Positions 5,187 through 43,335 of a stretch of 64,000 nucleotides of DNA are shown piece after piece. Source of the DNA: a virus (lineage: Duplodnaviria; Heunggongvirae; Uroviricota; Caudoviricetes); IMG/VR virus record IMGVR_UViG_3300028048_000105. One strand, 5' to 3'. Position 1 is the stretch's first letter, and each line of letters opens with the position of its first letter. Both the position numbers and the translations under genes were made by a program. The notes under the pieces were generated by a model. It saw only the letters and a program-made list of their open reading frames with translations. It was not told where the DNA came from and made no database searches.

Positions 5187-5303
5187 TTGCTTCTCCTTTC
5201 AAACTGTAGCAATTTGTTTACACAATCAATATGAAATGAGAAAAGAACCACACAAAAAAAAGAGACGCCACATAAGCGGCATCTCTTTGTAAAATTCAAA
5301 ATA

Positions 5304-6947
5304 TTAAAATTCATCCGACAGATCAAAATCCTCGATATCATCCATAACCGGGCTCTCTTCTATATCCGGCTCTTCTTTTACCGGTCTGTTAATGTCATAG
5401 TCTGGATCATCGTTGAACCGGCTGCCGTAATCACCGTTACCATAGTCGACATCCTGCTCGCGGTCCTCAATCGTAATGTCTGCACGACCCTCATCGACCG
5501 CAGGTACTTCCATTTCATACATCTGTGAAGTAAGGGAAACGGAAGAAAGATCCGTGCGGACTTTATCAACAAATCCCTGCATGTTTGAAGAATCCATCTC
5601 GATATTATTGGTTAATGCCGTCACGGTGTTATCGCTGTCATTCGTGATATTCAAAATTCCAACTTCTTCCATCACACGATAACGCCCGGCTTCAATAATC
5701 CCGGCCATATATGAAGAATTTCCATTGTATTCCATCAACGAATCATTTTCCATGTTTCTGATTTCCATATATGGCTTCCGCTTTGAGTCCGGCTCCATAT
5801 GAAGCTTCAAATCCCCGTTTTCAAAAAGATGTTCCATGTAGTCTTTCTGGATCCCGTTCATCTGCTCAATTATAGATAAAGATACATACGGCTTTGCAAG
5901 TTCTCTTAATGAAAATTCCTGTATTCTTCCTTCTGTCGAAGCGGGACAGACATAGAAATGGAATGTATCCTGCAGCTCTTTGACACATTCCGGATTTGCA
6001 AAATTCAGTTCTTTTTCAATCGCCTGATTCTTATATACGATCGCTCCTCCCGTTCTGAGGACAATATAATTTTCCGGATGTGCGGAGTCATAAATCGTAA
6101 TGCCTTTTACTTTTTCGCCGTCCATGATCCGGCTAATCGGTTCGAACGCTTTCATATTGACAGCCTGAACCTGCTCCATCGCTTTGTAAAGCTTTGTTGT
6201 CTTCTGTAAAGCTACAACCCCGACCGCTTCATTGAAGATTTTTTCTTTTTCCGGAGAACCAATATCTTTTTCTGACACAAGGAAAAGGTTCTTGTTCGGG
6301 TCTTCCCTGATCCGGGAAGCAATTCCTTTTTCAGCGAGAATAAGCTGGACCTGTTGCATCTGTGGATAAGAAAGATTTTCCATCTGACGGACAAAGCTAT
6401 CATTCATGAGATCATTTGCCTTGTCTGCATCCATGAATAAGGACTGGCTTTCAAATTTTGCTGCGATATCCATGATCTGTTCCATGTTGTCGCCGGATAC
6501 CATATAGATCGAAGTGTAATCTTGTGCATGAACCGGCATCATGACGAATGGCATATGACCTGCCGCCATTTCCCTTTCAAAATTGAAGCAGTCCCTGTTG
6601 TCCAACTGTACGAATCCGATCGAGTCACCATATTTCTCAACCCAGTATTTATCGGCTTCTTTAATTGCAAGATCTTCCGCTTCTACAACGGACAACCCTG
6701 TCTCCCTCTGAATCTCATCCTGCTTGTCCTGTTTGAACGTTTCCACATCCATGCTCTGTTTCGCCAGTTTGTCCAGCAGGTCTTTATTTGCCATCTCTGC
6801 TTCCTGCAAAAGCATAGATAACTTCTGCACCATTGTTAAATGTCTTAAAAGTGTATCGACTGATCCTGTAACTGTCCCGACAATCACGCTTGCCATTGGA
6901 TCAAGAGTTTTTATTGTGTTGTTCACCACTTTGTTTGCTTCTTCCAT
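5304..6947 (-). CDS. hypothetical protein with acidic C-terminal tail
   Basis: 547 aa ORF; no motif recognised; D/E-rich C-terminus. Confidence 0.5.
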   Translation of the reverse strand: MEEANKVVNNTIKTLDPMASVIVGTVTGSVDTLLRHLTMVQKLSMLLQEAEMANKDLLDKLAKQSMDVETFKQDKQDEIQRETGLSVVEAEDLAIKEADKYWVEKYGDSIGFVQLDNRDCFNFEREMAAGHMPFVMMPVHAQDYTSIYMVSGDNMEQIMDIAAKFESQSLFMDADKANDLMNDSFVRQMENLSYPQMQQVQLILAEKGIASRIREDPNKNLFLVSEKDIGSPEKEKIFNEAVGVVALQKTTKLYKAMEQVQAVNMKAFEPISRIMDGEKVKGITIYDSAHPENYIVLRTGGAIVYKNQAIEKELNFANPECVKELQDTFHFYVCPASTEGRIQEFSLRELAKPYVSLSIIEQMNGIQKDYMEHLFENGDLKLHMEPDSKRKPYMEIRNMENDSLMEYNGNSSYMAGIIEAGRYRVMEEVGILNITNDSDNTVTALTNNIEMDSSNMQGFVDKVRTDLSSVSLTSQMYEMEVPAVDEGRADITIEDREQDVDYGNGDYGSRFNDDPDYDINRPVKEEPDIEESPVMDDIEDFDLSDEF

Positions 6948-7032
6948 CTGTCATTCCTCCTGTAATTTTCTCCGGATATCCGGATAACAACAATATGTAT
7001 TATTATTTCTTCCGCTTGACCAGTCTGCCACA

Positions 7033-8088
7033 TCAGGATCTGTCAAGATCTTCCGTAAAATCAAGTTCCTCCCGTCCTGTTTCCTCAAGATTACTTAAAA
7101 GTGAATGCAATTCTTCACGTATCGATTCCCCGTTTTTCTGCAACTCAATCCCTTTTTCGATGCATTTCCTTTTGTAGTCACGTTCCTTGATTTCCCGTTT
7201 TAATCTTTCATTCTCCTCCTGCATCTGCTTAAGAATTTTTCTCTGTTCATTTTTCTCTCTATAAGCATCATCTCTCTGCTTCACCAGCTCTTCTGGAATT
7301 TTATTCTTTTCCTCATTTACAACCGATCCATCACCGCCATCCATAAAATCATCTTCCGCGGTCCGTCCGTCATCAAGGATTATATTTTTCATATATTCCT
7401 GTCTCTGGTTTACTTCCTTCGTAAGCTTCTCTGCATACCGGGAATTCTTTTTCAGATGTTCCGTACTCTGCCGCCTTGGGGTTTCCCCTGTGTTAAATCT
7501 TACGTGGTACTTTTCGTTGCACAGCTTTTCAACTGCCTGGTTCATTTTCAGGATATTGGTCAGGGAAGAGAAATCCTTGTTGCTTAATTTTCCATTTACC
7601 TCCGGAACAACCTGAATGTGAATGTGAGGTCTGGATACTTTAATCATTCCGTCTTTCGCATCCGTGTAAGGAGCGATCTCATCAAAGTGGCTTGTTGCGC
7701 TGATGATATTCTCATCCCCGAATTTTTCCCGGCACATATCGTAAAAATCTTGAAACAACTCCTTTGCTTTTTCATTTGTCATTCCAAGCGGTACCGGCAT
7801 TTCCAGACTTGTCATTTCAATCCGGTCATCCCTTTTGTTTGTATTTGTTGTTCTATCCAGTTCCGCAAGACGTTTTTCCCATTTTTCCCTTGATTCCTTC
7901 CATGACATTCCTGTGAAGTTTTGGTTTTGATATGACTTTGACGGATCAATCTCGATATTGCTGTGCTGCTTTGTTGGATCAGCTCGGAACGTCTGATCAC
8001 AATGTTTTAAAAGATTTACTCCGCGGATATGATCTTTTTTGCTGCATTTTGCACTTCCGTGATTGCCGCCCCAGTTAACTGAAGACAT
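7033..8088 (-). CDS. mob: MobV-family relaxase (plasmid recombination/mobilization protein, Mob_Pre)
   Basis: SHFDE...RPHIHIQVVP..NGKLS motif like pMV158 MobM HxDE/HxH; coiled-coil C-terminus. Confidence 0.75.
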   Translation of the reverse strand: MSSVNWGGNHGSAKCSKKDHIRGVNLLKHCDQTFRADPTKQHSNIEIDPSKSYQNQNFTGMSWKESREKWEKRLAELDRTTNTNKRDDRIEMTSLEMPVPLGMTNEKAKELFQDFYDMCREKFGDENIISATSHFDEIAPYTDAKDGMIKVSRPHIHIQVVPEVNGKLSNKDFSSLTNILKMNQAVEKLCNEKYHVRFNTGETPRRQSTEHLKKNSRYAEKLTKEVNQRQEYMKNIILDDGRTAEDDFMDGGDGSVVNEEKNKIPEELVKQRDDAYREKNEQRKILKQMQEENERLKREIKERDYKRKCIEKGIELQKNGESIREELHSLLSNLEETGREELDFTEDLDRS

Positions 8089-10764: not shown

Positions 10765-12321
10765 ATGCCGAGTTACTGTCTCGAATTAAAGTTAAAAGTG
10801 AAGAAAGACTCCGACAGGAATTACCTACAGAACTACTTTAATGCGGTGGCAAAGCTCGGTAATGAAATACGCAGGTTCGCAATCAGACAACTCGGGCATC
10901 TGAAACAGGACAGGAACTACAATTCCCTGCTTGCGGAGTACGTAAAAGTCAAAGGGGACGAAGATTCCCCGGAGCGCGAACGTCTGTCAAAAGAACTGTC
11001 TGTCATCGTAGGTTCCTACGGGCTTACAAAGTACGGACTTCAGAAATCAGCCTGTGAAATGCGTAAACATCTGAAATACGTGCATTCTGATGTTTACCAG
11101 AAACTCAGTGACAGTATCTGGCGAAGCGTAGAGAAATACCTTTACGGCAACGGAAAACAGATCCACTTCAAGAAGTGGGATGATGTCATGAGTTTTGAAA
11201 ACAAGAAGAACTCCACCGGCATCATTTATGCGGATGGAAAGGTATACATCAACTGTACGCCAAAGAGACCCAAATGCGGGATTGCCCTTGACATCATCCT
11301 CCCGCGCAACAAAGAATCCGCCCACTACATGTATGAAACCACATGTCTTACTGACAGGACGAAATACTGCCGGATCGTAAGGAAGATGTTTCCATCCGGA
11401 TGGCGGTATTACGTACAGCTGGTACAGGAAGGGATTCCTCCGCAGAAACATGAGATCGGGAAAGGGCGCGTCGGTATTGATATCGGTACATCCACAATCG
11501 CTGCGGTATCAAAAGATGGCTGCATCCTCGAAGAACTTGGGGAGCCTGCTTCCTCTCCTGCTGAAGAATGCCTGCTCCAGCGGAAGCTTGACCGGAGCCG
11601 CCGTTCTATGAATCCGAACAATTACAAGGAGGATGGCTCCGTAAAGAAAGGCAAAAAGACCTGGAAGAAATCAAAAACTTACCAGGCTGTCCAGAACCGG
11701 CTGAAATCCCTCCGGAGACAGAAGGCTGCCCGCCTGAAACAATGGCAGGAAGCCGAAGCGAATAAGATCGCCGCAATGGGAAACAAGGTCTTTGTGGAAA
11801 CGATGGATTTTAAAGCTTTGCAGAAGCGTGCAAAAAATACCGAGCGACAGGAACAAACGTCCCTTGTAAAACAGAAGGATGGAACGGAAAAGGAAGTACA
11901 TAAATACAGGAAGAAGAAACGATTTGGCAGTTCCATCGGAATGCATGCCCCCGCTCAGTTCTTATCCATACTGGAACGGAAGCTGGCATACCACAAAGGC
12001 GGGCTTTGCAGAATCAATACCTGGAAATTCAAAGCCAGCCAATACAACCATGTGGATGACACCTATGAGAAGAAGAAGCTCTCAAAACGTTACAACACCA
12101 TAGACGGCCGGTGGGTGCAGCGTGACCTCTATAGTGCATTCCTGCTGATGTGTTCGGATGATACACTTGAACACGCAGACCGGAAACGGTGTACCAGAAA
12201 CTATAAACGTTTCCTTAAAAACCACGATGCCTGCATCAATGAAATCCTCGCAGATATCCAAAAGAACCAAAAGAAAGTCCCATCCTGTTTCGGAATCAAT
12301 GCAAAAATGGCTGCCCTCTAG
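10765..12321 (+). CDS. tnpB: TnpB-like RuvC nuclease (IS605 OrfB family) apparently lacking the zinc-finger
   Basis: RuvC-I GIDIGTSTIAAV, RuvC-II VFVETMDF, RuvC-III-like WVQRDLYSAFLL; no CxxC pairs between II and III; 518 aa. Confidence 0.65.
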   Translation: MPSYCLELKLKVKKDSDRNYLQNYFNAVAKLGNEIRRFAIRQLGHLKQDRNYNSLLAEYVKVKGDEDSPERERLSKELSVIVGSYGLTKYGLQKSACEMRKHLKYVHSDVYQKLSDSIWRSVEKYLYGNGKQIHFKKWDDVMSFENKKNSTGIIYADGKVYINCTPKRPKCGIALDIILPRNKESAHYMYETTCLTDRTKYCRIVRKMFPSGWRYYVQLVQEGIPPQKHEIGKGRVGIDIGTSTIAAVSKDGCILEELGEPASSPAEECLLQRKLDRSRRSMNPNNYKEDGSVKKGKKTWKKSKTYQAVQNRLKSLRRQKAARLKQWQEAEANKIAAMGNKVFVETMDFKALQKRAKNTERQEQTSLVKQKDGTEKEVHKYRKKKRFGSSIGMHAPAQFLSILERKLAYHKGGLCRINTWKFKASQYNHVDDTYEKKKLSKRYNTIDGRWVQRDLYSAFLLMCSDDTLEHADRKRCTRNYKRFLKNHDACINEILADIQKNQKKVPSCFGINAKMAAL

Positions 12322-13747: not shown

Positions 13748-14590
13748 ATGAAATACGCAAGATATGATATTATCCTCCAGGAAAAGGAAGTAAACGAGGA
13801 TCTTTTAATCAGAATTGACAACAGCGAGGCATCCGGTGCGATCCCGCTTGAGCTGCCGTCACATGACCGAAAGGAAAAAGTTTCCGGTTACATGAACTTT
13901 CAGGGAGCGAAAGCTCTCGGATACAACCTGTCAAACAAGGAGCTGCTTGACAAGCTGAGTTTTCTCATCTTCAACACCCGCTCCGATTCCAGGTGCAGCT
14001 CGTATGACGAATACGAGCTGGGAGATCTTAAGGTGCTGGTATTCCGCCATATGGATCCAGAGGAAATTCCGGAAGATATGAGGGCAACAGACTCTGTATC
14101 TGAGATTTTCCCGAACTGCATCTGGCACAAGTTCCCAGATGGGTCCGGGTATCTTGATGGACCACGGAAAGGCCAAAAGCTTATCCAAGGTTACGACCTC
14201 TCTACTAACGAATTCAAGTATCGCGGAAACTGGTACTTTTTCGCTGACACTGACTCTGGACACTATATTACCTGCCAGGAGGCGATCAGCCAGATGGAAG
14301 TCCTCTTGTATAAAACACCAGATACTTTCGTCCGGCTTTACATCAACTGGTATGGCTCCTGCAACGAGTATGCACTTGAAGCAGAAGCGGAAACCGGAGA
14401 AAATGCAGGTGCGCTTGCCCTCCAGAAATTCCTCGAAACCGCAAAGGAAGAGGAACTGGTTGGATACATGCTCTATTCAACAGGCGGCCGTCAGGATGAG
14501 ATGTTTGATTTCCTGATGACCGGGCTCCCTGGGGTATCCGGGAAGAAGAAGGAAAATATCAGAAAAATTATGGAGAAAATGTACGCTTAA
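13748..14590 (+). CDS. hypothetical protein (module B upstream)
   Basis: 280 aa ORF; TTTCATATTGAAGATGTAAAC..ATCGAAAGGAGAAAAACC ATG. Confidence 0.55.
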   Translation: MKYARYDIILQEKEVNEDLLIRIDNSEASGAIPLELPSHDRKEKVSGYMNFQGAKALGYNLSNKELLDKLSFLIFNTRSDSRCSSYDEYELGDLKVLVFRHMDPEEIPEDMRATDSVSEIFPNCIWHKFPDGSGYLDGPRKGQKLIQGYDLSTNEFKYRGNWYFFADTDSGHYITCQEAISQMEVLLYKTPDTFVRLYINWYGSCNEYALEAEAETGENAGALALQKFLETAKEEELVGYMLYSTGGRQDEMFDFLMTGLPGVSGKKKENIRKIMEKMYA

Positions 14591-19402: not shown

Positions 19403-19742
19403 CTGGTCTGAATTCTCCTAAAGAAATACTTTCCGAGCTTCCAATCGCCCGTGCTTCCCAACAGAGTGAGTAATCGCACCATTCAATAACATATCTTTCA
19501 TCATCGCACTGAAAAATATCTTTTTCATAGATCCCCCTATACCCTGTGCATTGGCAGAAGGTTCCCGGAAATACCGGATAAAAAGCAATATCCTCTCCAT
19601 CCCATACCTCGATTTCTTCAATCTCGCCATCTTCATCGCAACTTGGCAAGCCTTCCACCCATTCGCCATTATCAATCCGCTTTCCGCGGAATAAATATCT
19701 ATTTTCCATGTTGTTCCTCCTTTTGACCGCAATCTGAGGCAT
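19347..19742 (-). CDS. YopX-like phage protein (start probably at the internal Met, about 19709)
   Basis: MENRYLFRGKRIDNGEWVEG N-terminus resembles YopX family. Confidence 0.4.
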   Translation of the reverse strand: MPQIAVKRRNNMENRYLFRGKRIDNGEWVEGLPSCDEDGEIEEIEVWDGEDIAFYPVFPGTFCQCTGYRGIYEKDIFQCDDERYVIEWCDYSLCWEARAIGSSESISLGEFRPDEIVAIGNAIDNSELLEV

Positions 19743-20184
19743 CTATGTTAATTCCAATTTTTTCAAAATAAAATTTAACCGGTTCAATATGTTCCCGTAT
19801 AAGTCCATACTTAATCGCCAGACGGTACTGAAATGTTTTTTGCAGGTTTCTCATTAGTGTGCTGGTTAATGCTTCACGGAAAGACTCCAGGTTACCACAT
19901 GACTTGTAGAAGTTACATTGCCGGCACGCAGGAAGCAGATTTTCTTCTGAATACATTTCCTTTTCTGTCATTGTATGACTGGCATCGGTATTAGCAAAAA
20001 CAGACTTAACATGATCCACCTGCATATCCTTGTATTCCAACTCACATCCACAGTATGCACACCGGTGGTTGCATTTTTCATACACCAGAAGCCGGATTTT
20101 CTTTGGTATCTTTTTATGTGCTGACATTATTTCACCACCCTTCATTTTTTGAATCCGTCCATCGAATTCGCTGACCGCATTCAA
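19699..20184 (-). CDS. HNH endonuclease
   Basis: CAYCGCEL...VDHVKS...CRQCNFYK. Confidence 0.7.
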   Translation of the reverse strand: MNAVSEFDGRIQKMKGGEIMSAHKKIPKKIRLLVYEKCNHRCAYCGCELEYKDMQVDHVKSVFANTDASHTMTEKEMYSEENLLPACRQCNFYKSCGNLESFREALTSTLMRNLQKTFQYRLAIKYGLIREHIEPVKFYFEKIGINIDASDCGQKEEQHGK

Positions 20185-21295: not shown

Positions 21296-21506
21296 ATTTT
21301 TCCCTCCGTTACTGTTACTGTAATGTTTTTAAACATTGAGTTAACTAAATTAAGATTTAAAAGAACTCCATGTTTATCCATTACAATATACATATTGCGC
21401 CATCTTCCAAATCGTCAAAAGGCTTTGGAAACTTTTTTTATTTTTTTTCAAAAATTTTCCCACATACAAAAAAGCTGCCCCTGAAAGAGACAGCTTTTAC
21501 AGCGAG

Positions 21507-21692
21507 TTACTTTTGAATTTTTTGGATCAGCTCGTTAACATCCACAGTATACAGCTTCGGCTTTCCGTCCGGATCAAGTTCCTGGACCATGCTCTGCCCG
21601 ATACTGTCGGCATACACTCCGAAACAACTTTTGTACGACTGCATCCAGACCGTCTCATCCTCGCTAATAATCGGAAGATCATCCTTCAGCAA
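21507..21692 (-). CDS. truncated paralog of the C-terminal domain of lipoprotein 36119..36496
   Basis: shares ..VWMQSYKSC.G..A.SIGQSMVQELDPDGKPKLYT.D.NELI.K.QK with 36119..36496. Confidence 0.4.
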   Translation of the reverse strand: MLKDDLPIISEDETVWMQSYKSCFGVYADSIGQSMVQELDPDGKPKLYTVDVNELIQKIQK

Positions 21693-21721
21693 TTACTCAT
21701 TTTTTCTAATTTATTTTCCTT

Positions 21722-22148
21722 AATCCATATACCCCTCGCGGGGCGCGACTACCTTCCCCGAAGGTATGGATTTGTCACAATTTTTTCAACCCATGCACCC
21801 ATAAGGGATGCAACGTTTTACCATGGAGAAGATACAAAGGGCAGCAGTGATTTCAACCCATACATCCCATAAGGGATGTAACGAGTAACTCAAAAATGTT
21901 ATGATCATATTAAAAATATTTCAACCCATACATCCCATAAGGGATGTAACGAGGAGTACAAAAAACGCTCGATGCGGTATTCTCTATTTCAACCCATACA
22001 CCCCTTGTGGGGTGCAACTCGCGCTGTTTATGGATCTGCCACAGGAATTTCAACCCCTGTACCCCTCGTGGGGGTACAACGTGAAAAATATGGTGTTCCT
22101 CATTTTATATATTTGTTTCAACCCATGCGCCCCTCCACGGGGCGCCAC
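21722..22148 (-). CRISPR. CRISPR array, 7 repeats (one degenerate), type I-C-like repeat (minus strand GTTGCATCCCTTATGGGATGTATGGGTTGAAA)
   Basis: Repeats at 21722-21750 (degenerate), 21784-21814, 21851-21882, 21919-21950, 21987-22018, 22048-22080, 22116-22148; spacers 29-36 nt; repeat stems differ by compensatory changes. Confidence 0.8.
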
Positions 22149-22397
22149 TGTAAACGCGAACGGAAACCTGTTTTCCTGTCCGCCAAAATATTAAACAATT
22201 TTCCTAATTAACCCATCCACAACTGCCTCCCGTGGTTGGGATTCGCGCTCTCTTGTACATCTCGCCTTCTCTCCCCCGTGCGAACCTCCTCTGGAAACTA
22301 CGTACGTCTCCGGTTCGCACCTGGACCAGGCATCCCAATACAACCGGCAGGTGCAGCCCTCAAAAAACGGGCTGCTTTGTGGCTGCCGGAAGCACTT

Positions 22398-23309
22398 TTA
22401 AATCATGCGCGTCATCGTCACACCGCCCGGGATTGCATCCTCATGGATCTTTACGGTGTAATCAGAGTATTTGCGAGGAAACTCGACATCATCGTTCTTC
22501 TTGACATCAACTGCTTCAAATAGCTTGTAGGAAGGACAGTTGCCGAGTTCGCTGTCATGCCTGAATACAATCAGCTCACGTACCGCCATCTTCCCGCGTG
22601 CTGCGGAATGGTCATTTTCAAACATATTGATGATGGCTTTCCAGAGAAGATCCAGATCATCTTCGGAAAAACCGGTGGTCTTGCGGGCAAGGTTGGCAGA
22701 AACATATCCTTCCACGCGGTAGAGACCATAAGGGATAATGCTCTTTCTTCCCATCTCGGTGTTCTTCTTTTCCGCATCCTTTTCAGTTGTGATCGCAACT
22801 CTGGTTACGGTAATATCCTGGCTGAAAACAGGATCAATACTTTTTGCAAAGCCAATCTGTACCGGGCCGCGTACCTGTCCACAGTTTAATGCCGCCTTTG
22901 TAAAAGTGGTCATAACAGCACCGAATGTACGGATATCGTAGTAGTTGCTGCACATATAGTCACGGAGCTTAAGGTCTACGTTCTCATCGGTCTTTTTCAG
23001 TTTCTTGACATCCTCAAGTGCCTTCTTACTGTCATCAACATCAACACCAAGGTTTTCGATTGCCTTAAGATCGCTGCGGTTCAACGGAATACCCTCTTTG
23101 ATGTAGATCTTGAAACCGTCTGCATCCTCCTTTGCGGTTTCCACATAGTTGCGGATCTTTCGCTTTAAGCAGGCGTCTGTCACAAGACCGATGCCGGTCT
23201 CTGGATCAACCCTTGGCATGTTTGCGGCATCCGGATCGCCGTTTGGGTTTCCATTCTCTACGTCAAATAATACTACAAAATCATATCTGTTCTGAATCGG
23301 TTTGCTCAT
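22398..23309 (-). CDS. cas7: Cas7 (Csd2), type I-C
   Basis: MSKPIQNRYDFVVLFDVENGNPNGDPDA..VDPETGIGLVTDACLKRKIRNY is the Csd2 N-terminal signature; GGAGG RBS; ORF-track start 23468 is an upstream extension. Confidence 0.85.
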   Translation of the reverse strand: MSKPIQNRYDFVVLFDVENGNPNGDPDAANMPRVDPETGIGLVTDACLKRKIRNYVETAKEDADGFKIYIKEGIPLNRSDLKAIENLGVDVDDSKKALEDVKKLKKTDENVDLKLRDYMCSNYYDIRTFGAVMTTFTKAALNCGQVRGPVQIGFAKSIDPVFSQDITVTRVAITTEKDAEKKNTEMGRKSIIPYGLYRVEGYVSANLARKTTGFSEDDLDLLWKAIINMFENDHSAARGKMAVRELIVFRHDSELGNCPSYKLFEAVDVKKNDDVEFPRKYSDYTVKIHEDAIPGGVTMTRMI

Positions 23310-23310
23310 A

Positions 23311-25050
23311 TTAGTTTTCCTCCATCTTCTCTGCATTTGTCTGGTTGCTTTCAGGATCGCTGTCTTTTGACTTATTGCTTGTATATTCTGCCTGCATCTG
23401 GTGGTAATAACCAAGTGCGAATTTGCCCTGATCCTCATACGTGAAACGCTTCGGGAACCCCGGATCATCCGCTGTAACCGGAATCAGGCCCATCAAACTT
23501 TGGATCTTAGCCGCAAAATAATATCCTTTGCCCGGCTTTGTGCGTTTCAGCTTGCTTAAATGGCTGTTGGACAGTCTGATCAGCACCGGAAATACCGATC
23601 CTGGCGTTGTGCATGCGGAATTGTAAAACTTGTCACAGATCGTCTGGTTGATGTTATCAATTGCTTCCTTCTGTGTCCTTTCCATTACTGCAAACAGTCT
23701 GCCGAGGATATACGCACGGTCTCTGCAGTCTTCGTTTAATACTTCCATATTTTTTCCTTCCTCCCATTTATAGTTCTTTATTAAAAAAGCCTTGATGACC
23801 GCTGCTTTTCTGTAAGTAACGCCTTTGTGCTCGGCACGGATGCGGGACAGCACTCCTGCATACAGGCTCTGCGGATACTTGGTATCCGAAATGACCGACT
23901 GTAACGTCATCGCAGCCATATGCGGAACCGGGGTCCTGTCTGTAAGGTTCTGGTTTACCGTCTCCATAAGCATCTGCCAGATATTGATGAATTCCTGATC
24001 CTCAAACACCGGCTTTATGATCATCATCCGGCTGGCATGTTCCAACAGGTTCTTCCAGATCACTCCGATGGCATCTTCATAGAAGAACCGGACTGCAATT
24101 CTGCCGGCATTCGGTGCAAGACAGAGCACGTACAGTTTTTCATCCGGATCTGCAAGGACATGATCTTTTTCATTGGCGCTCCCCATCATCTTCCGCAGTC
24201 TGCTTACATCATCCACATCCCCGGAATCCGTCCAGAAGACCACCATGGAATCTCCTACCTTGCTGTGGTACCCGTCCGTGGAAAGCAGGTAATTTAATGC
24301 TGTCACATATGCATACGCCACATAGGTGCTGATCGGCGCGTTATAACTTTGTGTTTTCTCATAAGACTCAAGGGACGCGCCGTTAAAGGATACAAGCGCC
24401 GCACCGGATGACTGTGTTCCCGGCACTCCTTTGACCTTCCCATGTGTGCGGGCAATCTCTGCTTCCTTCCCGGTAACCAGGCATCTTCCTGTTACCATTT
24501 CATATGGTACGCTGCTGTAATCCAGCCATGCTCTGCGCACGGTCTCATTGTCATGCACATATTTGCCGTCTACCTCAAATACGAGGTTCCCGCCTTTATA
24601 AAACTTTTCCGCAAGCTTCGCAACTGCCGGGTGATCCAGTGCCTGTTCCGGATCCCATGAACGGAAAAAGCGGCACACTGCCTGTGCTGCCGACTCATCC
24701 ACGACATCAAGGATATCAAGATGTTTCTTCCTTGCTGCTTTAAAACAGTCCAGCGTACGCGGGCTCATCTTCTCATCAATTCCAAAGAGATACTTTGCAT
24801 TTTCGCAGAGAAAGCCGGAAGCAATGTTGTTACCCCGGGTGACCATCTCTGGAACCTGCATAACTGTCGGGATTTCAACAGTCTTTTTCCCTCTCTGTAT
24901 CTCCCGCTTTACGGAAACAATATCCTGGATTATCCCATCGTGGTTTAACACCACCGCATAGGATACCTTTGCATTGCACCAGCCGGGACGGGATACTTTC
25001 CCCTGGTCTGCAAGCGTTTCATATAATTTTACAAGTGACTGCAGGATCAT
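23311..25050 (-). CDS. cas8c: Cas8c (Csd1), type I-C large subunit
   Basis: MILQSLVKLYETLA N-terminus and 579 aa size match Csd1. Confidence 0.85.
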   Translation of the reverse strand: MILQSLVKLYETLADQGKVSRPGWCNAKVSYAVVLNHDGIIQDIVSVKREIQRGKKTVEIPTVMQVPEMVTRGNNIASGFLCENAKYLFGIDEKMSPRTLDCFKAARKKHLDILDVVDESAAQAVCRFFRSWDPEQALDHPAVAKLAEKFYKGGNLVFEVDGKYVHDNETVRRAWLDYSSVPYEMVTGRCLVTGKEAEIARTHGKVKGVPGTQSSGAALVSFNGASLESYEKTQSYNAPISTYVAYAYVTALNYLLSTDGYHSKVGDSMVVFWTDSGDVDDVSRLRKMMGSANEKDHVLADPDEKLYVLCLAPNAGRIAVRFFYEDAIGVIWKNLLEHASRMMIIKPVFEDQEFINIWQMLMETVNQNLTDRTPVPHMAAMTLQSVISDTKYPQSLYAGVLSRIRAEHKGVTYRKAAVIKAFLIKNYKWEEGKNMEVLNEDCRDRAYILGRLFAVMERTQKEAIDNINQTICDKFYNSACTTPGSVFPVLIRLSNSHLSKLKRTKPGKGYYFAAKIQSLMGLIPVTADDPGFPKRFTYEDQGKFALGYYHQMQAEYTSNKSKDSDPESNQTNAEKMEEN

Positions 25051-25706
25051 CGAAACACCTCACTGTTCCCGACATCAATGATGCCATTTTTCATAACTGC
25101 ATGGTAATACATTGGCTGGATATCTCTTCCGCAGGAATAATCCAGGTCATAAAGCATCAGCCCGAAATCCCTGTCCGGAAGTCCTTCATGGCAGGATGCG
25201 ATCTTTTCATCCCCCTCGCAGAGTTTAAAGTGCGCGGGGAATTCCCTTACCCCGAAATACGGCATCGAATAGCACGCCCCTTTTCTTGCCCTGTTATTAA
25301 AGATGCTGATAAATTTCGCCGGGCTGTCCGTCGGGCTCGCCTTGTCCGTCATTTCAAAATGTGCTTCAATCACGTAGCTGACATCACGGAGGATCACGGA
25401 TGCCCTCTGGATAATATCGTCTCTTGACGAATTATACAGCTTGACATCGCCGCCGTTATATGCCTGTAACATATTTGATTTCGGTATCTTGCTGAGAAGT
25501 TCATTCCTTCTTACGCTTGTAGTGGCAATCGGATTTAATACGTGGATTTTATCTACGTACCACCGTAATCCCGGATGCCAGTAGATGGATTCCAGAATCC
25601 CCCTAGCTGCCGACGGAGTCATCACATCATAGGTATACCGTTCTGTTTTCAGTTCCGGTCTAGTGAACAATGCATAATCTCCCCAGACTTTCAGTTTCAC
25701 TCCCAT
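25047..25706 (-). CDS. cas5: Cas5d (Cas5c) endoribonuclease, type I-C
   Basis: MGVKLKVWGDYALFTRPELKTERYTYDVMTPSAARGILESIYWHP; module A promoter at 25806-25838. Confidence 0.8.
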   Translation of the reverse strand: MGVKLKVWGDYALFTRPELKTERYTYDVMTPSAARGILESIYWHPGLRWYVDKIHVLNPIATTSVRRNELLSKIPKSNMLQAYNGGDVKLYNSSRDDIIQRASVILRDVSYVIEAHFEMTDKASPTDSPAKFISIFNNRARKGACYSMPYFGVREFPAHFKLCEGDEKIASCHEGLPDRDFGLMLYDLDYSCGRDIQPMYYHAVMKNGIIDVGNSEVFR

Positions 25707-27915: not shown

Positions 27916-27966
27916 AATTTTGAAAGTTTTTGAAAAAATTTTGTTTCATGTTAAATGTGACTTTAG

Positions 27967-27996
27967 TTTCAACCCATGCACCGCATAGGGTACAAC
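27967..27996 (-). CRISPR. Solo CRISPR repeat (TTTCAACCCATGCACCGCATAGGGTACAAC), degenerate stem
   Basis: Immediately 3' of stop codon of 27996..28358 gene; preceded on plus strand by a module B variant TTTCATGTTAAATGTGAC. Confidence 0.45.
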
Positions 27997-28358
27997 TATT
28001 TTCTCTCAACTACATTGAACTTCTTTGTTTTCTCAAATCGCGGCATTTCATTCTCATGGTAATCCGCGGATACATTACAGAGCATATCCCGAAGATTAAT
28101 CCAGTTAATCTTAATCACAGTCATCTCGACCGCTTTTGAACCATCGGAAACCAGTATTTTCTCTCCAAATTTGATTACCGGCGTTTCCACATCTGCATCC
28201 ATACGGAAAGTTAACTCTGTCCGGACCATTTTCCCTCTTGGTTCTTCCTCGTAATGCAGGCAGTTCCTTACGTTCTCAAAACAGCGACCTCCCTGCGAAA
28301 AGTGTTTTTTGCAGGTCAAACATTCCATTTCGTGTTTCCTCCTTCTTTCATAACACAT
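27996..28358 (-). CDS. hypothetical protein
   Basis: 120 aa; module A variant promoter at 28355-28386. Confidence 0.5.
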   Translation of the reverse strand: MCYERRRKHEMECLTCKKHFSQGGRCFENVRNCLHYEEEPRGKMVRTELTFRMDADVETPVIKFGEKILVSDGSKAVEMTVIKINWINLRDMLCNVSADYHENEMPRFEKTKKFNVVERK

Positions 28359-29265: not shown

Positions 29266-29677
29266 AATTGATTAAAATGAAAGGAAAAGAAAACCATGTT
29301 AAAGATAATGAGTTGTAAAAATTTTAATAATGATTATAGAACATATGGCGATTTCAGCAATATGTTTACTTTCTCATGCTCAAAATCAGGAAAAACATGG
29401 GGACAGAACGATTACTATACACCTTCCCGCAGTCGATTTCGATTTTAAACCAGGCACTTAAAACCGAAATATTGCAAAGCGCAGATGGCCGCGGAGAGAA
29501 GAAATTTCTTGATGCGGCTTTTTTATTGTTGAAAAAGTCATGGACAGGTAGCTGAGATGGATTAGCGAGGGACTGAAAATCCTTACAGGGTGGATCATTA
29601 CCACTCCTGTCCACTCCGCAGCGATGCGGTAAAAAACTGAATGGATAAGAGAAAACAGGCACTTCTTTTATCCGTAT

Positions 29678-29749
29678 GCATGTGAAGTGTTGTTGGCGGC
29701 ACACCTGCCTTCCAAGCAGGACGGGCGGGTTCGAGACCCGTCACATGCT
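29678..29749 (+). tRNA. tRNA-Gly (anticodon TCC)
   Basis: Manual fold: acceptor GCATGTG/CACATGC, anticodon loop CTTCCAA, T-arm GCGGG-TTCGAGA-CCCGT. Confidence 0.65.
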
Positions 29750-29750
29750 C

Positions 29751-29822
29751 TGATCCGTAGCTCAATGGTAGAGCACCCGGCTGTTAACCGGGGCGTTGAG
29801 GGTTCGAGTCCCTCCGGATCAG
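29751..29822 (+). tRNA. tRNA-Asn (GTT)
   Basis: acceptor TGATCCG/CGGATCA, D-arm TAGCTCAATGGTAGAGC, anticodon loop CTGTTAA, T-loop TTCGAGT. Confidence 0.75.
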
Positions 29823-29827
29823 CTCAT

Positions 29828-29909
29828 GCGTTGGTAGTCCAGCGGCGAAGACAGCTGACTGTAAATCAGCCACAAAGAAACACCGGAGGTTCGAGTCCTC
29901 CCCAGCGCA
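29828..29909 (+). tRNA. tRNA-Tyr (GTA), long variable arm
   Basis: anticodon loop CTGTAAA, long variable arm, T-arm GGAGG-TTCGAGT-CCTCC. Confidence 0.7.
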
Positions 29910-29913
29910 CTAT

Positions 29914-29986
29914 ACTTCCGAGGACAAACAGCAGAGTCACCGCCCTGTCACGGCGGAGATAGCGGGGTCAGCACCCGTCGGAAGTG
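29914..29986 (+). tRNA. noncanonical tRNA-like, anticodon GTC (Asp); possible pseudogene
   Basis: Good acceptor (ACTTCCG/CGGAAGT) and anticodon arm (CCGCC-CTGTCAC-GGCGG) but D-loop lacks GG and T-loop is GTCAGCA. Confidence 0.4.
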
Positions 29987-29991
29987 TTCCT

Positions 29992-30064
29992 GCTCCTGTA
30001 GCACAACTGGCAGTGCATCTGATTTGTAATCAGAAGGTTTCCGGTTCGAAGCCGGACGGGAGCT
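29992..30064 (+). tRNA. tRNA-Thr (TGT)
   Basis: anticodon loop TTTGTAA, T-arm TCCGG-TTCGAAG-CCGGA, acceptor GCTCCTG/CGGGAGC (one G-U). Confidence 0.7.
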
Positions 30065-30068
30065 TTAT

Positions 30069-30140
30069 GGATCTGTAGTATAAAGGCTATTACACCCGGC
30101 TGTCTACCGGAAAACGAGGGTTCGATTCCCTCCTGATCCG
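30069..30140 (+). tRNA. tRNA-like, anticodon GTC (Asp) with several stem mismatches
   Basis: canonical T-arm GAGGG-TTCGATT-CCCTC; acceptor with one mismatch; anticodon loop CTGTCTA. Confidence 0.45.
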
Positions 30141-30145
30141 CTCAT

Positions 30146-30219
30146 GTGCCTGTAGCTCAGTTGGCAGAGCACGCGACTTTTAATCGCGGTGGCGTCGGGT
30201 TCAAGTCCCACCAGGCACA
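30146..30219 (+). tRNA. tRNA-Lys (TTT)
   Basis: D-arm TAGCTCAGTTGGCAGAGCA, anticodon loop CTTTTAA, acceptor GTGCCTG/CAGGCAC. Confidence 0.7.
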
Positions 30220-30462
30220 CTAAATATTGAAAAATTCAAGGAAAGGAAGGAAAAACAATGATGACAACAGAAATGAGACAGTGTCCACAGAGAAGTATCA
30301 GTCAGCCGCAGTCATGCAGCTGGCGCAGTTGTCGTGCTCGTAAATACCGTCTCAAATTGAAAGAAATGTGGTCATTGCCTGGGAATTTCTGGGAAAATGT
30401 TGGAAATACTTAAGAAAACGGGGCATACATCTTTCGATTGAGAGGTGTGTGCCTTTATTTTT

Positions 30463-30545
30463 GCTGTACTGGCTCAACCGGAAAAGCAGCGGTCTTAAAA
30501 CCGCCATTCCGAAAGGATATTAGGGTTCGAATCCCTGGCACAGCG
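30463..30545 (+). tRNA. tRNA-Leu (TAA), class II
   Basis: anticodon loop CTTAAAA, long variable arm, T-arm TAGGG-TTCGAAT-CCCTG. Confidence 0.65.
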
Positions 30546-30576
30546 CTCTCCTCCCTTATCAGGGGAACCCATATAT

Positions 30577-30648
30577 GGCATCATAGCCAAACGGCTAAGG
30601 CGTCCGGTTGCAACCCGGAAGGTGAGGGTTCGATTCCCTCCGATGCCT
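30577..30648 (+). tRNA. tRNA-Cys (GCA)
   Basis: anticodon loop TTGCAAC, T-arm GAGGG-TTCGATT-CCCTC. Confidence 0.65.
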
Positions 30649-30653
30649 CTTAT

Positions 30654-30743
30654 GCAGACATATAAAGGTAACTGGTACCCCTCCACACTGCTAATGTGGC
30701 ATGCGGCACAACCGCTGTCCGGGTTCGAACCCCGGTGTCTGCG
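30654..30743 (+). tRNA. tRNA-Ser (GCT), long variable arm
   Basis: acceptor GCAGACA/TGTCTGC, anticodon loop CTGCTAA, T-arm CCGGG-TTCGAAC-CCCGG. Confidence 0.7.
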
Positions 30744-30749
30744 CTATAT

Positions 30750-30817
30750 ACACCTGTCTGATGGACAGAAAGTGGTCTCCAAAACCGCCAACGAGGGTTC
30801 GATTCCTTCCGGGTGTG
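30750..30817 (+). tRNA. noncanonical tRNA-like, anticodon CCA (Trp), shortened D-arm
   Basis: anticodon loop CTCCAAA, T-arm GAGGG-TTCGATT-CCTTC; only 68 nt. Confidence 0.4.
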
Positions 30818-30902
30818 CTCCTTTGTTCTCTTTGCTCACGGGCACGAATCGTGTGGGCGACGCCAGACTTTTCTGTAATTTCATTTAAAAAAGGGATATC
30901 CG

Positions 30903-33188: not shown

Positions 33189-34722
33189 CTACGCAACAAA
33201 TACAAGCCCCTCGTTGTGTCTTATGATCCGGCATTTCTTTGCCGGGTAGTTTGTTTTCTTATCACCATACACACGAAGATACTGACCGTTTGACAACTGC
33301 CCGGACAATACATGGTATTCACCCATGTATTCGAACAGGGCACCAGGCATCAGACGGTCCGGATTGTTGTAACGTCTTGTGCTCTTCTCAACGGTCAGCT
33401 GCGACCGCATCCGGTCTGCCTCTTTCCGGCCATGACATTTAACCTGTTCTTCATACCAGCCGGAAAGTGACGGGCACTTTTGTTCAAACCGCGGTCTGCG
33501 GTTCTTTGCAATGATCTTTCCATTGAGTCTGTATGTCCTCTCCCTCTGGTTATTGATAATTGCACGGTCATGTCTCCGGAACTGTACGATTTTATGTACA
33601 TAGGTAAACCCCGGGGCTGCCGCCGGTATCAAACCGGCACCAAGGCAGGCAATGCAGAAAGCATCTGCTTCGTGCATTTGGTTATCCTTTGTCTTTTCAT
33701 AGCCAAGGGACTGTCTTGCCATGGAAGTATCCCTGCCTGTGCAGGCATTCAGGTGTTCCGTGTCGACATGTTCTGAAAGGCTGCTCCAAATATACGGGAT
33801 TGCCTGGTTTAACACACTTAAGGCACCGTACTTTTTCAGGATACCGGCTTTCAGTTTCTCAAGCCGTGCTTTTGCATCAGGACTGGTATGTACCTTTCCG
33901 TGACAGCATTCACACAGCCCGGCGATGTTCTTTAAGGTATTGGAGCCGCCCTGTGACCGTGGCACGATATGATGGAAATGTCCGATATCGTTTCCACACA
34001 GAAGACATTTGCCGTGCTGCTGGTCATAAACTGCAGCATTGACATCCCCGTAGCCTTTCAGCGGTCCGTTCTGGAAATCAATGCCGGAAGTTTCCGGATC
34101 ATCCATTAATGCAAATGCAAAACGGTTGACTTCCAATGTCACATCCGTGACCGGAAGAAACTTCTGGATTTTTTTAATCACGTTAACATGGGTTTTCACA
34201 AGCTGTCCTGCGCTCGGGGTGAGCCATCCGGCTTCCCTTACCCGGTTGCAGAACCGTGCCTGTGTATTCCGGATAATCCTGCATGTGACGAACTTATCTG
34301 CAGCGTACTGTGGAAGTTTCCGCATGACCATGCCGGCTTTCAGCATGGTGCCAAAACGTCTGGCAAGCCGTTGGCGTGCCTTGCGTTCGCCATTGCGTGA
34401 CGCCCGGCGGTGTGCCCGGCGCTCATCGACCAGCTTTTTGATGTCCTTGTTGCGGGTTTCCACAACTGCCGAGAATACAGGTTCCGCATTTTCGTTGACC
34501 ACGCTTACGCCGATGTTGGTGCGTCCCGGGTCAATGCCTGCCATAAGTGGCTGCAGAACCGGCTCATTCTCATAAAGCAGCTGTATGGTGTAAGGAATGC
34601 GGCAGGCAATCCTTGCCTTACCAGCATCAAGCAGCTTTTTGATATATCTTTTCCTTTTTGTCGGCATCTGCGGTTTCCCGTCCCTGCCAAGCACATATAT
34701 GTAGTCTGTATCCGGCATGTGA
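33189..34722 (-). CDS. iscB: IscB (OMEGA RuvC-HNH RNA-guided nuclease)
   Basis: PLMP-like N-term, RuvC-I GIDPGRTNIGVSV, Arg-rich bridge helix, HNH CLLCG..HHIVPRSQGG..N..LCECCH; start at M-PDTDYIYVL with AAGGAGGG RBS (ORF-track 34919 start is an extension through the ωRNA). Confidence 0.85.
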
Positions 34723-34995
34723 TGCCCTCCTTTTTGTTTCATTAAATGTTGCGTGCAGTACCGCCGTCCAGCGTATCGGACAGCACCGGTTGTAAACCTG
34801 TGCACACCTTGTCGTACTGTTTCCCTAAGCTGGGTGGACACTCTGCATTGTGCCGGACTGGGAAAATCCGGCAGTGCCTGCCTTGTGACACGTATCCATC
34901 CATGCTTCTGCTCAACCACCAGTCAGACTGGATGATTCAGCAGCTCCGAAGAACCGCTTCCTCATGCTCGGTTATTCAATTGCCGAGTTTGGTTG
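34723..34995 (-). ncRNA. candidate IscB ωRNA #1
   Basis: about 270 nt structured noncoding region immediately 5' of iscB, beginning at the element-end hairpin; by analogy with described IscB ωRNAs. Confidence 0.5.
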
Positions 34996-37835: not shown

Positions 37836-38135
37836 CTACGGACGAATATGGAATCCGAACGAAAAACGTTCATTGATCTCTTTTCGGATCATGTCCATTA
37901 CTTTCGGGTCATTTGTGTAGAACATTGGAATCCCGGTACCATCCGGTTTGCATTCAATTCCTTTTTTTCGGATCTTTTCTATAATCTTTTCCTTTTCACT
38001 TGCCGGAGGGATATATGATGGCACCTCCGGTGTTTCTGATGCTTTCTTTGGCATATTATATCTCCTTGCTTTATATTTTATATTCTTTTCTGTCACCATC
38101 TTTTGTGGTACCAGACAATATTTCAACCCATACAT
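37836..38135 (-). CDS. hypothetical protein (start probably internal; ORF-track start lies inside a CRISPR repeat)
   Basis: 99 aa ORF. Confidence 0.35.
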   Translation of the reverse strand: MYGLKYCLVPQKMVTEKNIKYKARRYNMPKKASETPEVPSYIPPASEKEKIIEKIRKKGIECKPDGTGIPMFYTNDPKVMDMIRKEINERFSFGFHIRP

Positions 38136-38217
38136 CCCATAAGGGATGCAACTATATCTATGCAGGCAGCGACGATTCAGTATAATATTTCAACCCTGCA
38201 CCCTTGCGGGGTGCAAC
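38121..38217 (-). CRISPR. Satellite mini-array: 2 repeats (38121-38152, 38188-38217) + 35-nt spacer
   Basis: TTTCAACCCATACATCCCATAAGGGATGCAAC and TTTCAACCCTGCACCCTTGCGGGGTGCAAC; perfect hairpins; located between two co-oriented ORFs. Confidence 0.6.
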
Positions 38218-43063: not shown

Positions 43064-43335
43064 AGTTACTGTCTCCTTAAAAATCCAGTTACGGACTTGT
43101 ACTGCGGCTGGCACCACGATGGTGCTGTGGTAGCCAGCTGCTTCTTCTCGTTAATGTTGAGAATGGGTTACGCGGGCAGCGCACTGTCCGGTGTCTCGGA
43201 CCTGACGACTTAGCAACCGCCCATCGGCTTTCATGCTGAAGAAGCACATACCGCCGCCTCCATCCTAACGTAGTCCCGAAGGACTGAAACTGCTCAACCA
43301 TCTATCGGACAGCTTCGCATGCTCTCGCATGCTCG
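43064..43335 (-). ncRNA. candidate IscB ωRNA #2
   Basis: Structured 270-nt region 5' of iscB, begins right after a truncated module B. Confidence 0.5.

Follow-up and report, generated by a model that had tools for sequence, protein, structure and literature searches.

How can a CRISPR array keep its working anatomy while nearly every one of its repeats differs from the others? A natural case of this kind is found in the IMG/VR virus record IMGVR_UViG_3300028048_000105 (Caudoviricetes), of which a stretch of 64,000 nucleotides (nt), referred to in its whole length as the window, was analyzed. On the minus strand of the window, the effector genes cas5c-cas8c-cas7c (25706-22398) are followed by a leader and seven repeats (22148-21718). 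The original prediction, made from the letters of the stretch, had located this array properly (21722-22148), though the array reads on the minus strand. The reading favored here, to which a probability of about 0.7 is assigned, is that the locus constitutes a minimal type I-C guide-RNA array operating with Cas5c, Cas8c, and Cas7c, which is carried by a mobile element and represents an old mosaic built by recombination. In the following, R6 denotes the leader-proximal repeat and R0 the repeat at the trailer end, and the letters of repeats and stems are given in the sense of the CRISPR RNA (crRNA), that is, of the minus strand.

The six full repeats have a 5' GU and a 3' AUGGGUUGAAAY in common (R5 with AGGGG in the tail), and all of them fold at the same position into hairpins of 7-9 base pairs (bp) with energies of -9.4 to -17.1 kcal/mol. 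The architecture revealed by folding, namely a 2-nt 5' overhang, a stem of about 7 bp, a loop of 4-5 nt, and an 11-nt 3' tail, is that published for type I-C repeats (PMC8524198). Five distinct stems are present among the six full repeats, R3 being identical to R2, and the earlier statement that the repeats are non-identical and differ in their stems holds for all but this pair. Likewise, the common CAAC flank exists in most repeats, with R6 having CCAC at that end (plus strand), and a hairpin is preserved in every full repeat, except that R1 is not perfectly compensated and includes a wobble or bulge. Two of the six repeats correspond to the modal sequence, and the mismatches amount to 161 per 1000 nt, so that near-identical direct repeats, a canonical trait of CRISPR arrays, are not what the window array displays. 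In 61 chromosomal I-C arrays of related Clostridia, by contrast, a median of 96% of the repeats equal the modal repeat and the variants are single-base changes, which bears out the assumption that such arrays are usually near-uniform. The internal I-C repeats of a published survey contain about 4 mutations per 1000 nt, and decay of the trailer-end repeats has been described there as well (PMC12839519). As in those ordinary arrays, the oldest repeats are the most divergent, R0 being degenerate as had been anticipated; unlike in them, whole stems rather than single bases have been swapped with compensation, at about 160 versus about 4 differences per 1000 nt.

A first alignment comprised 13 distinct variants, those of the window and of the relatives closest to it. 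Here 94% of the cells are paired, and the covariation score was reached by none of 500 shuffles. Two-sided changes were observed in four of the eight stem pairs (G-C/G·U/A-U, C-G/U-A, A-U/G-C, and C-G/U·G/U-A). Extension to the whole family of 43 variants gave 91.9% paired cells and 30 double-sided cells against 8.5 in shuffles (again 0/500), and sliding the register of this alignment by one column reduced the pairing to about 35%. In the window array, the variable columns comprise 12 of 17 in the stem and all four in the loop, with neither of the two in the 5' overhang and only two of the 11 in the tail. These results support the proposal that selection acts on hairpin structure over sequence, for which a covariation check over all repeats, including satellites, had been suggested. 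That repeats vary in a compensatory manner from one array to another is old knowledge; the unusual point is that within one short array nearly every repeat possesses its own stem, each internally paired and stable across many samples, and that exchange among sister cassettes and satellite arrays is directly evident. Cas5c cuts at the 3' base of a 7-bp stem with 2-nt and 11-nt overhangs; it relies on the shape of the stem-loop, on the cut site, and on the handle that follows, with loop changes being tolerated (PMC8524198). The pattern of variation in the window, in which shape and tail are kept and the sequence of stem and loop is free, matches what this biochemistry predicts.

Table 1. Features of the array, its cas genes, and the satellite repeats in the window (R, repeat; sp, spacer; all on the minus strand)
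Feature	Positions	Strand	Sequence and remarks
Repeat R6	22115-22148	-	GUGGCGCCCCGUGGAGGGGCGCAUGGGUUGAAAC; stem GCGCCCC/GGGGCGC; -17.1 kcal/mol
Spacer sp1	22081-22114	-	Common to the window, L087, and L092
Repeat R5	22047-22080	-	GUUGUACCCCCACGAGGGGUACAGGGGUUGAAAU; stem UGUACCCC/GGGGUACA; -13.9 kcal/mol
Spacer sp2	22019-22046	-	28 nt, unusually short
Repeat R4	21986-22018	-	GUUGCACCCCACAAGGGGUGUAUGGGUUGAAAU; stem UGCACCCC/GGGGUGUA; G·U at stem base
Spacer spA	21951-21985	-	Among type-A arrays private to the window; equals first spacer of the L164 type-C array
Repeat R3	21918-21950	-	GUUACAUCCCUUAUGGGAUGUAUGGGUUGAAAU; stem UACAUCCC/GGGAUGUA; equals the homogeneous repeat of the type-C cassette
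Spacer spB	21883-21917	-	Seen in the window only
Repeat R2	21850-21882	-	Identical to R3
Spacer sp5	21815-21849	-	Matches IMG/VR contigs beside 5'-TTC protospacer adjacent motif
Repeat R1	21783-21814	-	GUUGCAUCCCUUAUGGGUGCAUGGGUUGAAAA; stem UGCAUCC/GGGUGCA, U·G wobble or 1-nt bulge; -9.4 kcal/mol
Spacer sp6, oldest	21750-21782	-	3' part is a perfect 7-bp hairpin, UACCUUC-GGG-GAAGGUA
Repeat R0, degenerate trailer repeat	21718-21749	-	GUCGCGCCCCGCGAGGGGUAUAUGGAUUAAGG; only CCCC/GGGG core kept
cas5c, pre-crRNA endoribonuclease subunit	25047-25706	-	219 amino acids (aa) from MGVKLKV; Pfam Cas_Cas5d 2.4e-38
cas8c (Csd1), large subunit	23311-25050	-	Pfam Cas_Csd1 9.5e-160; TIGR01863 2.9e-115
cas7c (Csd2)	22398-23309	-	303 aa; Pfam Cas_Cas7 1.7e-106; TIGR02589
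Leader	22149-22397	-	About 250 nt, cas7c stop to first repeat; defined by position only
Open reading frame (ORF) of 290 aa	25966-26838	-	Upstream of cas5c, the cas3 position in complete I-C operons
Terminator-like hairpin	21470-21498	-	13-bp stem and T run; follows the array and a small ORF
Solitary repeat S27	27966-27996	-	GUUGUACCCUAUGCGGUGCAUGGGUUGAAAC; adjoins a 120-aa ORF at its stop codon
Satellite mini-array S38a, 34-nt spacer, S38b	38120-38217	-	Directly downstream of the 767-aa helicase gene
Superfamily 2 (SF2) helicase, 767 aa	38850-41153	-	Pfam ResIII/DEAD/Helicase_C

The spacers of the window are 28-35 nt in length, and the 5' half of R0 is of the ordinary chromosomal I-C type (GUCGCG...). 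The hairpin in sp6 is preserved in relatives via a C/U wobble change, and sp2 (22019-22046) and sp6 (21750-21782) have a common core, UGUGRCARAUCCAUA, which may reflect duplicated units, related targets, or a structural element.

Comparison with related loci, designated L plus a number, bears on the question of whether the heterogeneity is real. In public assemblies, 325 blocks are recorded with precisely this Cas7c protein, on contigs of up to 356 kb, and the samples bearing it, where their source is identifiable, are mostly from the human gut. At least 12 further metagenome contigs, among them ten fetched loci (L087-L096) together with L146 and L194, show this succession of unlike repeats again. 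The full six-spacer set was seen in eight of the 12 type-A arrays, type A being that of the window (L087, L088, L090-L092, L094, L194, and the window itself); seven of these eight have the same spacers in the same order, and the window has two different ones. Between orthologous spacers, the differences are point mutations or small indels, as in vertically inherited sequence, and sp1 carries a 3-nt deletion and one substitution in those relatives that do not have the window version. Orthologous repeats are also separated by single steps, such as an extra C in R5, G or A in R3, and the length of the G run in R0; the counterparts of R5 in relatives are one C shorter than the window repeat. An assembly or sequencing artefact, in which different arrays were merged, would be suggested by L093, with a duplicated spacer, and by L146, a fusion of main array and satellite, both of which look chimeric. 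The occurrence of the window order in at least 12 contigs from separate assemblies speaks against it, which makes this explanation hardly credible, and the refutation by assembly error that had been envisaged did not materialize. Moreover, with 32-34 nt the repeats do not reach the k-mer lengths that are usual in such assemblies.

At this genomic place, one of three types of cassette is found, each of them beside the same 240-aa gene (94-97% identity). The Cas proteins of type B are 82-95% identical to those of the window, and type C is divergent, with identities of 56% for Cas7, 51% for Cas5, and 37% for Cas8, the gene order cas7-array-cas5-cas8, and homogeneous repeats GUUACAUCC[C/A]UUAUGGGAUGU... 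The type-B cassettes L101 (854-1050), L118, L127, L143, L180, L204, and L207 possess, between cas5c and the 290-aa ORF, an additional mini-array of three repeats, which includes a hybrid mismatched repeat; the window has no mini-array at that position. In L095 and L096 (about 11355-11390), the array ends after the fourth repeat and is joined to a 280-aa ORF, a Mob_Pre relaxase, a 547-aa ORF, and RecJ, the window counterparts of which (same size, same Pfam) are situated at 13748-14590 and 3510-8088, 8-18 kb from the array; this junction marks the array as a rearrangement breakpoint.

The origin of the different stems was approached through these cassettes. R3 and R2 are identical to the type-C repeat, and the adjoining spA opens the type-C array of L164; at the same position, the other type-A arrays contain the spacers sp3 and sp4 and the repeats R4a and R3'. 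The simplest reading is a block exchange, which would have proceeded through the common 15-nt 3' end UGUAUGGGUUGAAAU. Hybrid repeats, in which the 5' arm is of one type and the 3' arm of another, leaving a C·A mismatch, were found as GUUGCACCCCACAAGGGAUGU in L093 and L146 and as GUUGCACCCCCGCAAGGGAUGU in seven loci; they are the footprints of crossovers in the loop, and their mismatches show that not every repeat is compensated. Furthermore, a spacer beginning with UUCAAUAGAAACAGAUGC... appears in arrays of several kinds, namely satellite arrays, mini-arrays that lie upstream of cas5, one main array, and one type-C array, and for another, UACCGCAACAAUUAAAGGC..., the type of the flanking repeats changes from lineage to lineage. 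Permuting the order of the repeats lowers the resemblance between neighbors (p = 0.02 for the window, 0.009 for L087, and 0.03 for L210). Repeat similarity that tracks array order points to a history, in which units were copied serially and/or blocks recombined, and not to independent drift. The array looks like an ordered record that starts at the trailer with an old repeat of chromosomal type and departs from it step by step in the direction of the leader.

These findings bear directly on a purely in-place origin, according to which a uniform, static array diverged and each stem was repaired by second-site mutation under Cas5c selection. Such a course accords with the G·U intermediates that connect G-C and A-U at two stem pairs, with the single changes by which orthologous repeats differ between strains, and with the failure to find adaptation genes. 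It does not account for R3/R2 and spA being common to a different cassette, for the existence of uncompensated hybrids, or for neighboring repeats that are more alike than chance, and up to 12 differences separate the repeats compared with 1-3 between orthologous spacers. An in-place origin is therefore considered unlikely, and the independent compensation of stems in situ, which had been implied by the original prediction, was not sustained for the same reasons.

The favored reading, a mosaic assembled by recombination, leaves the question of whether units are still being added. In L089 and L093, three to six identical repeats are associated with strain-specific spacers, and type-B arrays (L101, L207, L210, and others) have an identical-repeat block at the leader end, before six or seven conserved, all-different repeats. 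Identical-repeat blocks with variable spacers imply that new units have been added somewhere in the family despite no cas1, cas2, or cas4 having been found, either through acquisition in trans by a host module or through import by recombination. The claim that no recent acquisition has taken place is accordingly supported for the window lineage, in which the array of most relatives is frozen, with spacers that differ by point mutations only, and does not extend to these other members of the family.

Two spacer losses are inferred, that of sp3 in the window and that of sp5 in L089, L093, and L146, and both fall between the only neighboring repeat pairs that differ by 1-2 nt, which is what homology-dependent deletion predicts. 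The same observation lends itself to the view that repeat dissimilarity is itself selected, up to the limit that Cas5c and Cascade allow, because it would suppress homology-driven deletion and stabilize a hard-wired guide set against competing mobile elements in an element that cannot re-acquire spacers. In line with this view, eight of the 12 type-A arrays keep six spacers, even if L095 and L096 end after the fourth repeat, deletions are inferred only between repeats differing by 1-2 nt, and the general idea that repeat mutations limit recombinational spacer loss has been put forward (PMC12839519). Rare turnover would, however, be just as likely to leave this pattern behind passively; the window itself has two identical repeats (R3 = R2), and identical-repeat blocks are tolerated in sister lineages. 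Selection for dissimilarity is rated as unlikely; if it were true, the 43 variants would map the sequence space accepted by a type I-C Cascade.

The assignment of the system rests on its effector genes. The products of cas5c, cas8c, and cas7c score far above the curated type I-C cut-offs in Pfam and NCBIfam, Cas5c also being recognized by NCBIfam TIGR01876 (type I-C Cas5c, 2.9e-49) and aligning in full length to Desulfovibrio vulgaris Cas5c (PDB 7KHA, E = 1.7e-66). No tblastn match to cas1, cas2, or cas4 homologues, with five host I-C loci as queries, was obtained in the window or in L087-L217, which substantiates the absence of cas1-cas2 noted previously; nor was there a match to cas3 in the window or related loci when the ORFs upstream of cas5 (the cas3 position) of five host loci were used. 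The 290-aa ORF at this position in the window is kept at 86-88% in the type-B cassette, and its sole match is a PHROG of unknown function; it gave no Pfam, NCBIfam, or PADLOC match, and its single-sequence AlphaFold model was unusable, with a predicted local distance difference test score of 32. The offset of the first repeat after cas7c is constant across all type-A relatives. No sigma-70-like promoter was found in the leader, so that cotranscription of the array with the cas genes is possible. Between R0 and the terminator-like hairpin lies a small ORF of about 45-61 aa (...MQSYKSCFGVYADSIGQSMVQELDPDGKPKLYTVDVNELIQKIQK; 21513-21700, minus strand), a corresponding gene of which is not called in related loci.

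Taken together with the repeats, a sequence of events may be proposed for the mosaic array. It would be transcribed from the cas side, and Cas5c would cleave the repeats, in each case at the hairpin's 3' base, giving crRNAs that all carry the same 11-nt 5' handle UGGGUUGAAAY and each a private 3' hairpin. Cascade complexes would then bind TTC-flanked targets in competing mobile elements; since no Cas3 was detected in the window or related loci, the target would either be silenced or be attacked by a recruited nuclease-helicase that is provided in trans from elsewhere. Units would be added or exchanged rarely and old units not flushed, so that the array preserves successive or imported repeat versions, each of them internally co-adapted because only shape and tail matter to Cas5c and Cascade. 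Three processes are documented in the building of the mosaic, namely point mutation (with paths from G-C through G·U to A-U among the changes), the swapping of repeat-spacer blocks, via the common 3' handle, with satellite arrays and sister cassettes, and spacer loss between the most similar neighboring repeats. A fourth is suspected, whereby a drifting leader-proximal repeat would be copied at rare acquisitions by an adaptation module acting in trans.

A target is known for one spacer. The protospacer of sp5 was located in three IMG/VR contigs of 19-28 kb, matching the L087 version at 34 of 34 positions and the window version at 33 of 34, and in all three the match lies immediately 3' of 5'-TTC, the canonical I-C protospacer adjacent motif (PAM). 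The site is directly behind a Cro-like helix-turn-helix gene. The target is a small temperate element, in which a CI-like repressor, a replication-like gene, and a serine recombinase are likewise encoded. Concatenated spacers compared with phage and plasmid collections gave chance-level matches only, and exact-core scans of IMG/VR for spA, sp6, and sp3 returned nothing. A search for self-targets within the window (TTC plus a 12-nt seed, at most two mismatches; all spacers and the flanks of solitary and satellite repeats) yielded none that was credible, and an autoregulatory CreR/CreA-like role was consequently left without support inside the window.

Should the array be a decaying relic, an orphan losing its function with the hairpins left over, a degenerate trailer repeat, spacers that mostly have no known target, and weak stems in some sister-lineage repeats would be expected, and all three are present. 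Such decay is nevertheless very unlikely in view of the strong hairpins and tails kept by the six full window repeats, double-sided compensation above that in shuffles, intact cas genes with Cas7c identical across 325 blocks, and the existence of a PAM-flanked target.

Several observations weigh against the mosaic array as a functional guide source or against its recombinational origin. A target was found for only one of the six window spacers, and the upper stem is decayed in some fossil repeats of sister lineages (-2.7 to -6 kcal/mol), which means that selection on the hairpin is not absolute. L093, with its duplicated spacer, and the L146 fusion could be strain-mixture chimeras, and recombination and serial copying are inseparable with these loci. 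Cas1, cas2, or cas3 could be encoded elsewhere on the element, which exceeds 350 kb. Finally, the catalytic positions of Cas5c, as aligned to the D. vulgaris protein, read Y-K-F in place of the usual Y/H-K-H. In this triad, Lys is the sole invariant residue, and Phe is among the replacements reported at the His position (PMC8524198); activity of the window Cas5c is plausible on the basis of this comparison.

The solitary repeat S27 brings in another possibility, as it abuts a 120-aa ORF (27996-28358) of no assigned function in a layout that resembles the acrIC5-racrIC1 operon. The flank of S27 is 100% conserved in eight of ten related loci (L087-L089 and L092-L096), and its downstream sequence has no PAM-plus-seed target within the window. 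Conceivably, the hairpins of the whole array could form a battery of RNA anti-CRISPR (Racr) decoys, which mimic host I-C repeats and titrate Cas5c and Cas7c. Mobile genetic elements are known to employ repeat mimics, one of type I-C among them (Camara-Wilpert et al. 2023, PMC10651486), some stems are like chromosomal types (for example, GCACCCC/GGGGUGC in L056 and L080), and S27 follows directly on a small ORF. Against decoys, the array stands directly behind its own Cascade genes and has regular spacers of 28-35 nt, one with a PAM-flanked target, and its tail GGGUUGAAA differs from GGAUUGAAA in most chromosomal arrays sampled, all of which renders this idea highly improbable. The likeness of S27 to acrIC5-racrIC1 is one of anatomy only, and the main array, with spacers, a target, and cas genes of its own, does not fall under Racr.

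By its effector genes, repeat architecture, and PAM, the window system is type I-C, from which it departs in Cas3, Cas1/2/4, and repeat uniformity. With the systems of D. vulgaris, Bacillus halodurans, and Streptococcus mutans it shares Cas5c, Cas8c, Cas7c, and the TTC PAM, as well as the 2-nt overhang, the stem of 7-8 bp, the loop of 4-5 nt, and an 11-nt tail ending in UUGAAAY, with Cas5c rather than Cas6 as the expected processor. It differs from them in having no cas3, cas4, cas1, or cas2 detectable by tblastn in the window, in the position of the array directly after cas7, in repeats that start with GUUGCA or GUGGCG instead of GUCGC, end with the tail GGGUUGAAA, and are non-uniform, and in the Y-K-F triad of Cas5c.

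A type I-C variant of huge phages that is devoid of Cas1 and Cas2 and has a helicase for Cas3 has been described (Al-Shayeb et al. 2020, PMC7162821), and CRISPR systems on mobile elements without adaptation genes, and often without recognizable interference genes, were already known. By description, the window is similar to such phage-borne systems, this variant included, in the large mobile element, the many tRNA genes, the lack of cas1, cas2, and a recognizable cas3, a compact array targeting another mobile element, and a helicase beside a satellite array. It would differ in that 13 kb separate its helicase from the Cascade genes and that restriction or RadD-type helicases are the best matches of this protein. 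By their descriptions, plasmid type IV-A3 systems with spacer acquisition in trans (bioRxiv 10.1101/2023.06.23.546257) and CRISPR-associated transposons with atypical repeats (bioRxiv 10.1101/2020.07.02.184150) are alike in being carried by mobile elements, effector-only, short in their arrays, dependent on foreign adaptation modules or tolerant of nonconsensus repeats, and engaged in conflict between such elements. The effector families of both are different, and no DinG or Tn7 genes were present among the window ORFs scanned.

The 43 repeat variants amount to a natural mutagenesis series for one family of Cas5c/Cascade, in which the stem-loop shape and the 11-nt handle, and not the sequence of the stem, are conserved. 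They illustrate how an array evolves without an adaptation module, by point mutation, by block exchange with sister cassettes and satellites, and by loss between similar repeats, and they suggest design rules for recombination-stable multiplex I-C arrays. As the element is common in human-gut metagenomes, the locus also offers a handle on the conflicts of gut mobile elements, at least one guide being directed against a small temperate element.

The remaining features concern the surroundings of the array. The pairing of the 767-aa helicase with a mini-array is conserved (96-98%) in L108, L112, L169, and L212, where the mini-array has three repeats. In NCBIfam, the helicase is RadD-like far below the cut-off; its best PADLOC matches are restriction helicases, with a weak hit to "poss. 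alt. Cas3" (6.8e-7), and about 400 aa of its C-terminal part carry no annotation. A role as a stand-in for Cas3, at 13 kb from the Cascade genes, is possible. Besides ten tRNA genes, the window contains many HNH endonucleases and a type I restriction-modification system, along with transposases, RecJ, and a Mob_Pre relaxase, and the PHROGs matches of its proteins are to nonstructural or unknown families only. The carrier is a large mobile element of the human gut, either a huge phage, which is the more probable of the two, or a megaplasmid. A megablast of the locus against INPHARED phages gave no match, the Rfam scan of the window reported tRNAs only, and nothing was found when IMG/VR was scanned with the family repeat pattern, from which the element was taken to be missing in that catalogue of viruses.

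The ten tRNA genes are clustered at 29542-30818. One of them (30463-30546), not named by ARAGORN, was considered as a suppressor and rejected, since it is a type-II tRNA with the anticodon loop CUUAAAA, that is, tRNA-Leu(UAA). Genes for RRXRR/HNH and HNH endonucleases are situated at 33189-34919, 41654-43117, 911-1942, and 19699-20184, an ISL3 transposase is encoded at 48896-50284, and a transposase-like ORF occupies 10765-12321; these scattered endonucleases and transposases suggest heavy traffic of selfish elements inside the carrier.

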